64,000 bases of DNA from an uncultured Clostridium sp. (GCA_947653235.1 CANTGH010000002.1:139128-203127), one strand, 5' to 3'; numbered from the stretch's first letter, positions 48,677 to 53,480 are shown. Notes: generated by a model not told the origin, from the letters alone. A program made the numbers and translations.

Positions 48677-48844
48677 ATGAAAGATATGTTATTAACCGCT
48701 GAAATAGATGAACCAATTGTTGAGGAAGAAACTGTTGTTACTCCAATAGAATATGATGGATTGACAATGACAATGGCAACTTATGATGTAGCACAACCAC
48801 AGGCAAACGAAATACCATCTTGGCAAACTGGTACGGATATTTAA
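48677..48844 (+). CDS. candidate precursor peptide (55 aa)
   Basis: ATG follows GGAGG. Acidic N-terminal part (MKDMLLTAEIDEPIVEEETVVTPIEYDG), then LTMTMATYDVAQPQANEIPSWQTGTDI. Below the ORF-track cutoff. Followed by an intercistronic hairpin. Confidence 0.45.
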   Translation: MKDMLLTAEIDEPIVEEETVVTPIEYDGLTMTMATYDVAQPQANEIPSWQTGTDI

Positions 48845-48879
48845 GTGGTGCGAAATGTTTTTAAAGAAAATCTGAAAAA

Positions 48880-48914
48880 CTCGGGACAGAGTTCACTCTG
48901 TTTCGAGTTTTTTT
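48880..48914 (+). terminator. intercistronic hairpin/attenuator after the candidate precursor
   Basis: CTCGGGACAGAG-ttca-CTCTGTTTCGAG (G-U pairs allowed) followed by TTTTTTT, located between the peptide gene and the enzyme genes. Confidence 0.6.
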
Positions 48915-48928
48915 AAATAGGAGAAAAG

Positions 48929-49933: not shown

Positions 49934-51634
49934 GTGAAAGACTTAAAAACACTAAAGTGGATTTTTGCCAAAACAAAATCGCAAACTTTGAATTTTGTTT
50001 TGGTTAATGTGATTAATGTGGTGTATTCGATACTGAGTATTTATTTGATTTTAATATCCAAACATGTGATAGATGCAGCAATGTCAGATGCTTTTTTGGA
50101 ATTGAAAAAATATATAATACAACTAATTATGATTTCGTTATTGGGGATTGCTCTAAAGGCGATTTTGGCTTCCATTGATGCGGTGACGCGTGCAAAATTG
50201 GAAATTCATTTTAAACAAGATGTTTTGAATACGATTTTGACGAGAAATTATGAAAGGTTGTCTAAATTTCATAGTGGAGAATTGATGACAAGGATTGTTT
50301 CTGATGTGAATATTATTATTGATACATTGGTGTCGTTAATTCCTAATATTTTATCGATGGTGGCGAAACTTGTTTGTGCTGTGGTGCTGTTGTTTCAGAT
50401 AAGTAGAGAGTTTGTGGCAGTGCTGTTAGTTGGTGGTTTGGTCTTATTTGTGGTGGTTAATTTATTTAAACCGTATTTGAAAAGAGTCCATAAAAAAATG
50501 CAAGAGGCAGCTTCTAATGTGCGTTTGTTTTTTCAAGAGGTGTTTGAGAATTTTTTGGTGATTAAGATTTTTGAGGCAGAAGAGGCAATGAAACAAAAAT
50601 CTATGCAATTGCAACATGTCAAATATGATATTCAGATGAAACGTAGAAGTTTGTCGATAGCGTCTGGAACGGGGTTTAATATTATTTTTCAAGTGACATA
50701 TTTGTATTCGTTAATTTGGGGAACGTATCATTTGTATTTGAAACATATTACGGTTGGCGGATTAACGTCGATTGTACAATTGATTAGTCAGGTGCAAGCT
50801 CCGATTATTGGGCTTTCTCGATCGTTTCAAAATATGTTTGGGATGATTGGTTCGGCGGAAAGAATTATTGAACTGGAAAATATGCGTGAAGATAAGAAGA
50901 AGGAAGAGATTAATTGTAAGGCATTGTATCAGGATTTGGAAAAAATTGTGATGGAAAAGGTTGACTTTACGTATCAAAATAAGAAGATTTTTGAACAAGT
51001 TGATTTTTCGGTCAATAAAGGAGAAATTGTTGCGATTTATGGAGAATCAGGCATTGGAAAAAGTACGCTTTTGAAGCTTGTTTTAGGAATGATTGAAAAA
51101 GATGTGGGGGAGATTTATTTTACGTTGAATAATGGAAGTAGGCAAACAATCGGAAATCATACAAGAGGGATGTTTGCGTATGTGCCACAAGGAAAATTTA
51201 TTTTAAGTGGAACAATTCGAGAAAATATTTGTTTTGTAAATCCTGAAGTGACAGAAGAAGAGTTGCAAGAAGCTTTGAGAGTAAGTGATTGTACAAAATT
51301 TATTGAAGAATTGCCAGAAGGTTTGGAGACGAAGATTGGAGAAAGAGGAAGTGGCTTGTCAGAAGGACAGTTGCAAAGATTGGCGTTGGCAAGAGCAATT
51401 GTAAGTGATGCTCCAATTTTGATTTTAGATGAGATTACGTCTAGTTTGGATCGTAAAACAGAGGAAAAAGTTTTGAGCCATATTAAAAATTTACACAATC
51501 GAACGTGTTTGATTGTGACACATCGCAATAGTATTTCACAGATTTGCGATCGAGAATTTGTGGTGGAAAATAAAAGGATAAGGGAAAAGGAAAAAGAAAA
51601 TGGAAGAAGAGAAAGCATTATTAGAAATGATTAA
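49934..51634 (+). CDS. ABC exporter, fused permease/ATPase
   Basis: GTG start. Six-TM N-terminal half, Walker A GESGIGKST, signature LSEGQLQR and Walker B ILILDE. No C39 peptidase domain. Confidence 0.85.
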   Translation: MKDLKTLKWIFAKTKSQTLNFVLVNVINVVYSILSIYLILISKHVIDAAMSDAFLELKKYIIQLIMISLLGIALKAILASIDAVTRAKLEIHFKQDVLNTILTRNYERLSKFHSGELMTRIVSDVNIIIDTLVSLIPNILSMVAKLVCAVVLLFQISREFVAVLLVGGLVLFVVVNLFKPYLKRVHKKMQEAASNVRLFFQEVFENFLVIKIFEAEEAMKQKSMQLQHVKYDIQMKRRSLSIASGTGFNIIFQVTYLYSLIWGTYHLYLKHITVGGLTSIVQLISQVQAPIIGLSRSFQNMFGMIGSAERIIELENMREDKKKEEINCKALYQDLEKIVMEKVDFTYQNKKIFEQVDFSVNKGEIVAIYGESGIGKSTLLKLVLGMIEKDVGEIYFTLNNGSRQTIGNHTRGMFAYVPQGKFILSGTIRENICFVNPEVTEEELQEALRVSDCTKFIEELPEGLETKIGERGSGLSEGQLQRLALARAIVSDAPILILDEITSSLDRKTEEKVLSHIKNLHNRTCLIVTHRNSISQICDREFVVENKRIREKEKENGRRESIIRND

Positions 51635-52742
51635 ATGCTTTTTGGAAAATCGAAAATATGCTTCGGATCAATGTTTGGATGAGGAAAAATTGTATCGTTT
51701 GGCGAGAAAACATAGAGTTTGCAATTTTTTAGTGAATTGGGCAAAGCAAAAATGTCAATCTGAAAAAGTCAAAAATGCAATTTTGGCAGATTATAATGAA
51801 CAAATTGTAAGAGATACGAATGAAAATTTCGAATTAGAAAAAGTTTTGGATCAATTGGAAAAAAGTGGTATAAAAACATTGGTATTTAAAGGTGTTATAA
51901 TGAAGGGGTTGTATCCACAAAATTATATGAGAAAAATGTGTGATTTGGATATGATGGTTCAAGAAGAAAAGTTTAAAGAAGTTAGCAAAATAGTCATGAA
52001 GTTGGGGTATGAGAAATTTTATAATCATGAAAAGCATTTGATTTTTGTCAAAAAGCCATTTGTGATGCTTGAAATACATCGAAAATTGATGGTGAAAAAG
52101 GATGTTGGGTATGAATTTTTTAAAACGGTTTGGGATAAATGTTGTCCATATCAAAATTATAAAAATATTGTTCAGCTGACATTGGAAGAAGCTTATTTAT
52201 ATTGCATTTTACATTTGATGATTCATTTTAAATTTACAGGAATACAAATTCGTGATGTGTTGGATGTTTATTTGTATCAGGAAAAATATAAAAATGTTTT
52301 TGATTATGAAAAATTGAATAATATGTTTGAGAAATTACAAATTACTCAATTTGAGAAAAATATAAAAAGAATAGCTTATCAATGGTTTGGCGAAGAAAAA
52401 ATAGAAGATTTTGACGAAGTGGAAAAGTTTATTTTAAAAGGCGTGAGCGTGAATAATAATGTGAATTATCACCTTGGGCAAAGGAATGGGAAATTGAGTT
52501 ATGCACTTGGCTTATTTTTTCCAGAATTTAAAGTGATGAAGGAAAAATATCCAATTTTACAAAAAGTTCCTGTTTTGTTGCCTGTTAGCTGGATTATGAG
52601 GATTTTGAAAGATGTTTTTTCTAAAGAAACGACGGTAAAAATGAGATTAGATACGATAAAATTAATTCAAGAGACCAATCAGGAAAACGTGGAAGATATA
52701 CAAAAAGTTTATAAAAAATTGGGAATTATTAGAAAGGAATAA
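51600..52742 (+). CDS. uncharacterised nucleotidyltransferase family protein (NTP_transf_5-like)
   Basis: 380 aa overlapping the ABC gene end. Length and the pattern ...KG....LYP....R...DLD.... fit the family seen in lasso/RiPP loci. Confidence 0.5.
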   Translation: MEEEKALLEMIKCFLENRKYASDQCLDEEKLYRLARKHRVCNFLVNWAKQKCQSEKVKNAILADYNEQIVRDTNENFELEKVLDQLEKSGIKTLVFKGVIMKGLYPQNYMRKMCDLDMMVQEEKFKEVSKIVMKLGYEKFYNHEKHLIFVKKPFVMLEIHRKLMVKKDVGYEFFKTVWDKCCPYQNYKNIVQLTLEEAYLYCILHLMIHFKFTGIQIRDVLDVYLYQEKYKNVFDYEKLNNMFEKLQITQFEKNIKRIAYQWFGEEKIEDFDEVEKFILKGVSVNNNVNYHLGQRNGKLSYALGLFFPEFKVMKEKYPILQKVPVLLPVSWIMRILKDVFSKETTVKMRLDTIKLIQETNQENVEDIQKVYKKLGIIRKE

Positions 52743-52745
52743 AAG

Positions 52746-53480
52746 ATGTTTGTAGAACATGAAGTTTTTATAGGACTACGTGATGTTGCACTGAATAATA
52801 AAGTCACGAATACGGCGCTACTATCTTATTTAGAGGATGCAGGTGGCGTCCATTCTAATTTGGTGGGCTATGGTTTGAAAGATATTCCAAGAGTGAAAAA
52901 GAGTTGGATTTTGCTGGGATGGAAAATTAATATTTTGAGAAGACCAAGTTATGGGGATAAAATTACGATTAGGACTTGGTCGAGAGGTATTGATAAATTG
53001 TATGCTTATCGTGATTTTGAAATATTGGATGAAATGAGAAAAGTAATTGGAATAGCAACTTCAAAGTGGGTTTTGGTGGATGTTGAAAAAGGAAAAATTA
53101 CCAAGATTGATCCTTCGATTGAAAAAGCATATACTGTTGAAAATGTTCAAGTGTTTGAGGAAAACGATTTGGAAAAGCTGTCTGAACCATCTGTGTTTAT
53201 CAATTCGACAATTTTTACAGTCAACCGAAGTTTGATTGATGTAAATGACCATTTGCATAATATTTATTTTATGGATATTGCCAATGAAATTTTACCGATG
53301 GAAGTTTATAAAAGTGCTGATTTTGCAAAGATTGAGATGATGTATAAGAAGGAAATTAAACTAGGAGAAACAGTAAAAGTATTTTATCAAGTCCAACAAA
53401 TGGAACACACAATTGTGATTAAAAGTGAAGATGAAAAATGTTTGCATGCAATTATTAAGTTAAATGAAAAAAATGGTTGA
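52746..53480 (+). CDS. acyl-ACP thioesterase
   Basis: 244 aa double hot-dog pattern (D.N..V.N...L.Y.ED...H......W.L..W.I.I.R.P). Confidence 0.65.
   Translation: MFVEHEVFIGLRDVALNNKVTNTALLSYLEDAGGVHSNLVGYGLKDIPRVKKSWILLGWKINILRRPSYGDKITIRTWSRGIDKLYAYRDFEILDEMRKVIGIATSKWVLVDVEKGKITKIDPSIEKAYTVENVQVFEENDLEKLSEPSVFINSTIFTVNRSLIDVNDHLHNIYFMDIANEILPMEVYKSADFAKIEMMYKKEIKLGETVKVFYQVQQMEHTIVIKSEDEKCLHAIIKLNEKNG

Follow-up and report, generated by a model that had tools for sequence, protein, structure and literature searches.

The locus described here lies on a 64,000-nucleotide stretch of DNA from an uncultured Clostridium sp. (GCA_947653235.1, CANTGH010000002.1:139128-203127), hereafter the window, in which positions 48,677 to 53,480 carry a compact set of genes on the plus strand, bounded by a terminator that belongs to the upstream gene (48551-48580) and a strong one at 54091-54129. 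In order, these are a 55-codon open reading frame (ORF; 48677..48844), a stem-loop with a T-run (48874..48914) and genes for an HprK-like P-loop kinase (48929..49636), a discrete PqqD-type recognition protein (49637..49903), an MsbA-like ABC exporter (49934..51634) and an NTP_transf_5 protein (51600..52742), followed by a gene for an acyl-ACP thioesterase (52746..53480). The gaps between the five genes downstream of the stem-loop amount to 0, 30, -35 (an overlap) and 3 nt, and the base composition from 40 to 58 kb shows no island signature. In our reading, the set is probably an operon for a ribosomally made, modified linear peptide and represents a peptidase-less relative of the pathway for Linear Polyphosphorylated Peptides (LPP), a class first described in 2026 (Popov et al., Nat Commun, May 2026; PMC13381572). 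The LPP core genes of Paenibacillus alginolyticus, lppA-K-B-S-D-N, encode a precursor, the HprK-like LppK, the RRE (recognition element of RiPPs, peptides that ribosomes make and that are modified after translation) LppB, the archaeal-type signal peptidase LppS, the MsbA-like LppD and the NTP transferase LppN, and include no cyclase (PMC13381572).

Transcription of the set would start from a sigma-70-type promoter on the plus strand (48614..48642), in which TTGACA (48614-48619) and TATAAT (48637-48642) are 17 nt apart and which is the sole 12/12 consensus match in a scan of 48300-54300. The terminator-like hairpin in front of it (48551..48580, plus strand; a 13-bp stem followed by a T-run) ends the upstream gene, which encodes a secreted protein, and is predicted to separate it from the precursor transcription unit. 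A ribosome-binding site, GGAGG (48666-48670), stands 6 nt 5' of the short ORF, and the 84-nt spacer between this ORF and the kinase gene contains the stem-loop, whose core is a 12-bp stem (48880-48907) that A/U pairs lengthen to 48874-48913 and whose seven T residues occupy 48908-48914. Its minimum free energy of -24.3 kcal/mol corresponds to z = -3.75, with 1 of 200 shuffled sequences being equally stable. A hairpin with a T-run is found in the same position in 22 of the 24 loci examined, with unrelated stem sequences, and because the position is conserved while the stems differ, we regard it as a selected feature. Since Rfam returned zero matches in 44000-55500, a known riboswitch or leader RNA does not explain the hairpin, which is probably a partial (read-through) terminator that sets the ratio of precursor to enzymes. 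The original prediction, which was made from the DNA letters of the window, had proposed a strong promoter in front of the 55-codon ORF, a hairpin plus T-run at 48880-48914 and the assignments HprK-like, PqqD, C39-less ABC, NTP_transf_5 and acyl-ACP thioesterase for the enzyme genes. Promoter and hairpin were recovered where they had been placed, the ORF translates exactly as quoted, and all of the assignments were upheld by profile or fold tests.

The kinase-like protein has no family in the local Pfam copy, and its sole NCBIfam match is TIGR04249 (ScmC) at 4.7e-6 and 26 bits, against a cut-off of 125; a precomputed annotation assigns it to PF27840 'ScmC', one of the newer families of Pfam. 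The structure prediction that had been advised for this product gave an HprK/P fold: an AlphaFold2 model built from 15 homologs (pLDDT 88.5, pTM 0.86) retrieved HPr kinase/phosphorylase from PDB as the top Foldseek matches (1kkl, E 2e-5), followed by phosphoenolpyruvate (PEP) carboxykinase, with TM-scores that were modest (0.34-0.46). PEP carboxykinases share the HprK/P fold. A sequence search of PDB with the kinase profile returned no significant match. The family alignment contains the invariant motifs LHSSAV, G-K-S-T (P-loop GTGKST) and N-D-D (LNDD). For comparison with characterized systems, the sequences of LppK, PbaK, BsfK, LppN, PbaN, BsfN, LppB and LppS were taken from the supplement of PMC13381572. 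The profile of the window's kinase family matched LppK across the kinase domain at 4.6e-14, versus 2.3e-7 for BsfK and 2.8e-6 for PbaK, a lead of about 10^7-fold for LppK over these lasso kinases. By fold and profile, the kinase-like protein has the HprK/P fold and is closer to LppK than to the kinases of lasso peptide clusters.

The remaining three proteins of the set are likewise related to LPP components. The product of 49637..49903 is a discrete, LppB-like RRE of the PqqD type (Pfam PqqD, 3.3e-14), with weak matches to lasso-PqqD families of NCBIfam too. By BLASTP, it aligns with a Ruminococcus RRE that is classed as 'other' in PMC13381572 (32% identity over 87 aa, 4e-13) and with a Paenibacillus LppB (3e-6), and it gave no match in a direct comparison with a lasso B1; a PDB sequence search returned nothing significant, the best RRE match being TbiB1 at E 0.4. 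The LppD-like exporter is a half-transporter in which a transmembrane domain is followed by a nucleotide-binding domain (ABC_membrane and ABC_tran only), with TIGR02203 (7.5e-70) and TIGR02204 (1.5e-68) among its top matches, and it is similar to MsbA and to the exporters of type I secretion. It is without a C39 domain, as its alignments to peptidase-containing models begin at model position ~120-150. The NTP_transf_5 protein (Pfam PF14907, 4.8e-41) is LppN/PsmN-like, with weak BLASTP matches to PbaN (2.7e-5) and LppN (4e-3), and its translation contains a D-x-D metal motif (CDLDMM) when compared with the alignment in a supplementary figure of PMC13381572. Mutation of the D-x-D motif inactivates PsmN, which is required to add a hexose onto the phosphate of pseudomycoidin (PMC6993621). 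Taken as families, the LPP domain groups TIGR04249/04352/04355, PqqD, TIGR02203/02204 and NTP_transf_5 are those matched in the window.

A single search with the kinase-like protein returned 3,901 database clusters at E <= 1e-3, and a scan of one genome per species confirmed at least 591 relatives, the 80 loci kept from that scan being all from Clostridia and mostly from metagenome-assembled genomes of the gut. For closer inspection, 95 loci (L numbers below) were fetched and annotated by profile searches and clustering. Where the kinase identity is at least 57% and an ABC exporter is present, the order is always short ORF-kinase-PqqD-ABC-NTP_transf_5, and the cassettes of this close clade occur in at least three contexts, namely next to SmpB/L28/Spo0A genes (as in the window), next to P-type ATPase/VanW genes, and next to RhuM/recombinase genes. 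The more distant loci (~45% identity; Acutalibacteraceae, Oscillospiraceae and Ruminococcus) mostly show the order short ORF-kinase-ABC-PqqD-small peptidase, without an NTP_transf_5 gene.

The 55-codon ORF, which is also predicted by public gene callers in identical contigs, would be an lppA-like precursor gene, as its ribosome-binding site, its conservation and its ratio of nonsynonymous to synonymous substitution rates (dN/dS) suggest. In the 55-aa peptide, which has a computed average mass of 6145.8 Da, an N-terminal leader of acidic character (…IDEPIVEEETVVT…) is followed by a tail that is variable, rich in Thr and ends in TGTDI; the peptide contains one Ser (S48, followed by Trp) and eight Thr. 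That such an ORF is conserved beside homologous cassettes, as the original prediction demanded, was borne out: an ORF of 36-60 codons with a strong ribosome-binding site lies directly 5' of the kinase gene in every close-clade locus that has enough upstream sequence, and it does so in several genomic contexts. These ORFs are highly variable and have in common an acidic N-terminus, a hydrophobic-x-x-Pro-hydrophobic element and a tail rich in Ser, Thr, Gly, Asp and Asn, which often ends in Gly-x-Asp/Glu-hydrophobic. L042 and L047, whose kinases are most like that of the window (72-74%), share its leader, with (L/G)EEP(I/L)(V/I)E.ET corresponding to IDEPIVEEET in the window, and differ in their tails, which is the usual RiPP pattern of a conserved leader and a variable core. 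The short ORFs of the distant clade are plainly homologous (MKxYxKPELxVEKFDVxDVITxS…DEF) and have the YxxP motif. Since dN/dS lies between 0.13 and 0.57 and thus below 1 in 13 of 13 computable pairs, the short ORFs appear to be under purifying selection. With the same arrangement kept in dozens of loci, the cassette is more than a chance assembly, and on these comparative grounds we regard the short ORF as a real gene and as the likely substrate of the cassette enzymes.

A further connection between the short ORF and the enzymes is provided by the RRE. In LppB, Asp70 forms a hydrogen bond with the Tyr of the leader, and the kink at the leader Pro is held in place by Asn33, so that the exchange N33A nearly abolishes binding (PMC13381572). 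Regular expressions found neither [YW]xxP nor P.{9}F.[TA] (Px9Fx[T/A]) in the 55-aa peptide, in whose leader a degenerate x-x-x-P-[IV] alone remains, as IDEPIV. Loci with a [YW]xxP leader keep Asn and Asp/Glu at the positions of LppB N33 and D70, with L004 as one exception, and the two close-clade loci that retain YxxP, L011 and L029, follow that rule. In the close-clade loci without YxxP, at least one of the two positions is substituted in 18 of 18 cases, the window having Thr and Asp. Because RRE residues covary with the leader motif, the short ORFs are tied to the RRE; as the loci are related to each other, we claim a statistical association and not a probability. A one-to-one covariation of RRE and leader had to be rejected, because the window keeps Asp70 though the Tyr is lost and loses Asn33 though the Pro is kept. 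The pattern suggests a rewired contact between leader and RRE, in which an aliphatic residue would take the place of the Tyr.

As the original prediction had stated, the cassette has neither of the two enzymes that would define a lasso peptide locus. By Pfam, no Asn_synthase-type macrolactam cyclase was detected within ±10 kb or among the larger ORFs across the 64-kb window, no Transglut_core (B2) family member was detected among the genes within ±10 kb, the distant small ORFs of the window being incompletely scanned, and no cyclase-sized ORF was seen in the operons of the close-clade loci; nor does a complete lasso locus own the cassette genes. The genes within ±10 kb encode RecG, a HIT protein, SmpB, L28, a big repeat protein, Spo0A, a purine nucleoside phosphorylase, a sigma factor and a CHAP protein, and the larger ORFs elsewhere in the window have housekeeping functions (a PrkC-type kinase, tRNA synthetases, a U32 peptidase, RlmN, RecA, GTPases and others). 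A 628-aa ORF between the U32 peptidase gene and rlmN (11565-13451) was considered as a cyclase and rejected, being a polytopic membrane protein. It has no Pfam match at E <= 0.01, and the same is true for a highly charged protein of 417 aa encoded at 30400-31653.

The search for a leader peptidase gave a similar result. A hidden Markov model (HMM) of LppS homologs, validated on LppS itself (2.5e-22), had no match at E <= 10 in six-frame translations of the whole 64-kb window and of all close-clade loci. The proteins of 150-200 aa in the distant loci are LppS homologs and have weak Pfam matches to Peptidase_S24. As judged from these searches, the missing signal peptidase I-like (SpI-like) leader peptidase is a real and distinguishing feature of the window's clade. 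In a separate observation, kinase-like and SpI-like peptidase parts share one 375-aa frame in L092 (7974-9116), an apparent fusion.

Directly upstream of the precursor unit, the window encodes a large secreted protein of 1085 aa (45263..48520, plus strand; four Pfam Flg_new_2 matches). It has a signal peptide and a PxP linker as well as InlB-type B-repeats, and it carries a C-terminal domain of ~170 aa that is distinctive. Wherever a close-clade locus extends far enough, a homolog lies directly 5' of its short ORF, in any context, and the distant loci linked to dnaG-rpoD likewise carry one directly upstream; further examples are found at L009 5215-7458, L082 4803-7718 and L095 1-2718. An HMM of the C-terminal domain (last 170 residues) gave 44 matches in the fetched loci, 42 of them immediately 5' of the kinase gene and the other two in tandem copies, and did not match the 2358-aa Flg_new/SLH protein of a cassette-less locus. 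The domain belongs to no Pfam family, and a homolog search with the last 200 aa returned only a 268-aa fragment identical to the query. As such, the upstream secreted protein may be a functional partner of the cassette; as far as gene order can tell, this linkage is the strongest lead bearing on function, yet it is one of adjacency. In Acutalibacteraceae (L041, L057, L059, L062, L069, L078, L082, L084, L089 and L091; ~1700-8000), we further observed a module immediately 3' of dnaG-rpoD that comprises secreted protein, precursor, kinase, exporter, RRE and peptidase and is followed by a Thr/Lys-rich, membrane-anchored protein of ~325 aa, to which no family could be assigned.

At the other end of the set, the thioesterase gene (52746..53480, plus strand; Pfam) follows the transferase gene, with a gap or overlap of a few nt, in 12 of the 21 distinct cassettes observed in the close clade (window, L007/L013, L014, L017, L021, L025, L026, L028, L029, L042, L047 and L095). 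Those with upstream sequence, namely the window, L007/L013, L014, L017, L021, L026 and L028, share the SmpB-L28 neighbourhood, and the cassettes in other genomic contexts are without the gene. Thioesterase homologs of 51-56% identity sit cassette-free among genes for a flavoprotein, an IMS polymerase and XerD-like proteins, the one in L094 additionally near a weak Spo0A_C-domain protein, and among the nearest relatives the thioesterase is 79% identical, versus 71% for the cassette proteins. A role as tailoring enzyme was rejected, since the gene is absent from cassettes in other contexts and its homologs keep their neighbourhood without the cassette. From this distribution we conclude that the thioesterase is an ancestral chromosomal neighbour outside the conserved cassette that is probably co-transcribed with it, and the acylation or de-acylation of the peptide that had been considered in the original prediction finds no support. 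Further downstream, a 179-aa ORF (53539-54078) has its own promoter-like site (53477-53505, with a TG-extended -10 element) and ends at the terminator at 54091-54129. It has no Pfam or NCBIfam family, its homologs were detected only in contigs identical to the window, and in view of its own promoter-like site and missing family it was excluded from the system.

Among the relatives, several arrangements differ from the one in the window. In an abundant type found on more than 100 contigs (L004 10001-20482, and likewise L005 and L030), kinase and PqqD genes are followed by ORFs of 34-35 aa with YxxP leaders, eight paralogous family-2 glycosyltransferase genes and another copy of the kinase gene; in the 10 kb downstream, neither an ABC exporter nor a peptidase or NTP_transf_5 gene was seen. 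In L035 (7902-7979) and L038 (7908-7985), a conserved 25-codon ORF (M.F....Y..Y..YI.YMQ.NLS.[YF]) that is unlike the other precursors precedes genes for kinase, PqqD and dihydrofolate reductase. Long spacers of 150-280 nt behind the hairpin share the element ATAGACA…TATAGTAAAAT in L009 (7842-8000), L015 (266-495), L016, L018, L019, L022, L023 and L031. To judge by its letters, this element resembles a further promoter, which would serve the enzyme genes; the shorter spacer of the window is without it.

If the cassette is indeed a peptidase-less relative of the LPP pathway, the following sequence of events can be imagined. The consensus promoter would transcribe the precursor gene, and hairpin and T-run would end most transcripts, with a fraction reading into the enzyme genes. 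The RRE would bind the acidic leader via a hydrophobic-x-x-P-hydrophobic element (IDEPI or VVTPI) that, as the covariation suggests, replaces YxxP, and would present the peptide to the HprK-fold kinase, which by homology with LppK, PadeK and PsmK would put one or more phosphates on Ser48 or a Thr, probably several times on one residue. In Bacillus subtilis, LppK adds up to four phosphates to core Ser3, and LppS together with LppB cleaves after Thr-1 (PMC13381572). The NTP_transf_5 protein may perhaps add hexose-type groups to the phosphate, comparable to PsmN, and the product would be secreted by the MsbA-like exporter. As the cassette has no dedicated leader peptidase, the peptide would either be released untrimmed or be shortened by a protease that is unlinked or extracellular. 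The thioesterase would have no part in this pathway, and the upstream secreted protein would probably cooperate with the product on the surface of the cell. Gene identity, conservation, selection and covariation come from the present comparisons; the chemistry would follow by homology.

Several points weigh against this reading. LppK takes only Ser and not Thr or Tyr (PMC13381572), and the single Ser of the window peptide lies at a distance from the leader; for LppN, no activity could be detected in the sole LPP experiment (PMC13381572). The window leader does not contain the LPP leader motif YxxPxVLxHQxIxFETxxS (Px9Fx[T/A]), the SpI-like peptidase is missing, and identity to LppK, LppB and LppN is just 24-33%. 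The two loci with the most similar kinases, L042 (699-1431) and L047 (895-1633), share a frameshift within the codons of the kinase P-loop (…EAYLFSAN / THGTGKST…); their precursor genes are intact, with dN/dS ~0.38, and what this lineage carries is a pseudogene or else something odder. Furthermore, in one sub-lineage (L025, L026, L028 and L095; for example L095 4180-5860) the ABC exporter is split into membrane and ATPase parts in overlapping ORFs, and the NTP_transf_5 gene is in two pieces in L029 (5445-6591) and L026, be it through natural splits, frameshifts or assembly errors. Frameshift and split genes together may indicate that the pathway is decaying in places. Lastly, promoter and terminator are known as consensus matches, and the product of the window's clade is a prediction from its genes.

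One could go further and imagine that the whole cassette is a decaying relic that has lost its leader peptidase and makes no mature product, an idea which is in line with the missing LppS homolog, the P-loop frameshift common to L042 and L047 and the split ABC or NTP_transf_5 genes of L025, L026, L028, L029 and L095. We nevertheless consider this improbable to a high degree, because the window has five intact genes that adjoin tightly or overlap, behind a 12/12 promoter and with good ribosome-binding sites, because the peptidase-less architecture is kept down to 57% kinase identity and in several contexts, and because precursors are under purifying selection and the kinase family has many invariant residues in its catalytic region. 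A split lasso locus, with cyclase and B2 protease elsewhere in the genome and the window genes as its tailoring, recognition and export half, is very unlikely in our view. Kinase, PqqD, NTP_transf_5 and ABC exporter are indeed typical of paeninodin- and pseudomycoidin-type loci, about one third of the LPP clusters adjoin lasso clusters (PMC13381572), and the searches span the 64-kb window for the cyclase and ±10 kb for B2. However, no Asn-synthase-like or transglutaminase-like protein was found in these ranges and no cyclase-sized ORF in the close-clade operons, the kinase is closer to LppK, the RRE has no match to lasso B1, and the peptide has neither a YxxP...T(-2) leader nor a lasso-type core. 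That the short ORF is not the substrate and the enzymes act on another protein or glycan precursor is hardly credible: the link between peptide and enzymes is indirect, and LPP precursors reach 200 aa (PMC13381572), yet all close-clade loci that reach far enough upstream have a short ORF, its leader pattern is conserved while the core varies, and RRE residues covary with the leader motif.

A different kind of alternative elaborates on the LPP-type reading instead of replacing it. Cassette and upstream secreted protein could form one unit, in which an exported, polyanionic phospho(glyco)peptide serves as ligand, anchor or matrix component for the C-terminal domain, and this would imply a surface or biofilm function rather than that of an antibiotic or signal. 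The domain occurs only in proteins directly 5' of the cassette or in tandem copies of these and not in the Flg_new/SLH protein of the cassette-less locus, and the adjacency holds across clades with kinases only ~45% identical and in different contexts. In addition, the LPP clusters of Bacilli, for which a role in biofilms has been proposed, lie in capsular polysaccharide loci (PMC13381572). Against this stand that the argument is one of adjacency, that the two units are split by a terminator and have separate promoters, that a domain with neither a Pfam family nor informative homologs permits no binding function to be assigned, and that about half of the fetched distant loci are without such a neighbour, so that we regard the idea as unlikely, though not negligible. 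In its most specific form, a single module of gut Clostridia in which an uncleaved phospho(glyco)peptide is bound by the C-terminal domain and thereby attaches or organises the large surface protein, it is a speculation that we consider distinctly doubtful; if true, it would also explain the LPP-type clusters in the capsule loci of Bacilli.

We therefore keep to a peptidase-less, LPP-related pathway as the preferred reading, and it is helpful to set it beside the systems that share some of its parts. The lasso clusters of the paeninodin and pseudomycoidin type (Bacillota) have a precursor kinase, a PqqD RRE, an NTP_transf_5 protein and an ABC exporter in common with the window, which differs in that it has no cyclase (in the window) and no B2 (±10 kb) and in that its kinase and RRE are less similar to theirs than to LPP-type proteins. 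Of the features of lasso precursors, neither the leader ([Y/W]xxPxL, Thr at -2) is found in the window peptide nor, behind either candidate junction, the core (Gly/Ala/Ser/Cys at position 1, Asp/Glu at 7-9). SynChlorMet clusters provide the best curated family match of the kinase, ScmC (TIGR04249/PF27840), yet with 26 bits it remains far below the equivalog cut-off of 125, and the radical SAM/SPASM enzymes ScmE and ScmF are not near the cassette, the sole radical SAM protein of the window being RlmN. Also related are the uncharacterized K-D-B-S clusters of Acutalibacteraceae, Oscillospiraceae and Ruminococcus, which correspond to cluster 9 of the sequence similarity network and to 'other RRE' in Supplementary Data 1 of PMC13381572. 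They share with the window the ScmC-type kinase family (~45% identity), a homologous RRE (32%, 4e-13), an ABC exporter, a short ORF followed by a hairpin and an upstream secreted protein with the same C-terminal domain. Unlike the window, they have both retained an LppS homolog and a leader that is clear (MKxYxKPELxVEKFDVxDVIT), and they are without NTP_transf_5.

The LPP clusters themselves resemble the window in their short precursor, whose N-terminal leader is conserved and whose core, rich in Gly, Asp, Asn, Ser and Thr, is variable, in an HprK-like kinase, a discrete RRE of the PqqD type, an MsbA-like exporter and an NTP_transf_5 protein without a macrolactam cyclase, and in the gene order A-K-B-(S)-D-N; even S48 and the following Trp of the window peptide parallel S3-W4 of the LPP core. 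They differ from it in their SpI-like LppS (archaeal-type signal peptidase I, TIGR02228), in Asn33 of LppB, which is Thr in the RRE of the window, and in their Bacilli hosts and capsule loci as opposed to an uncultured gut Clostridium and a large secreted protein. The linear phosphorylated peptide class to which the original prediction had pointed thus has a counterpart in LPP, experimentally shown in Paenibacillus in 2026 (PMC13381572), and with the publication of that family the cassette class is no longer an orphan. LPPs were found via their SpI-like peptidase in Bacilli, and their final product and role were left undetermined in that work (PMC13381572). As the window's clade has no such peptidase, searches that are seeded with it miss the whole clade by construction. 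As such, the present comparison would extend the kinase-RRE-exporter logic of LPP to a much larger and unstudied radiation in gut Clostridia, one clade of which appears to run an LPP-type pathway in which the defining peptidase is missing and the contact between leader and RRE is rewired, and the adjacency to the secreted protein gives a concrete lead to the biological role of such peptides. What is known is the LPP class; what is new is a clade that departs from it in peptidase and leader motif and keeps the rest.

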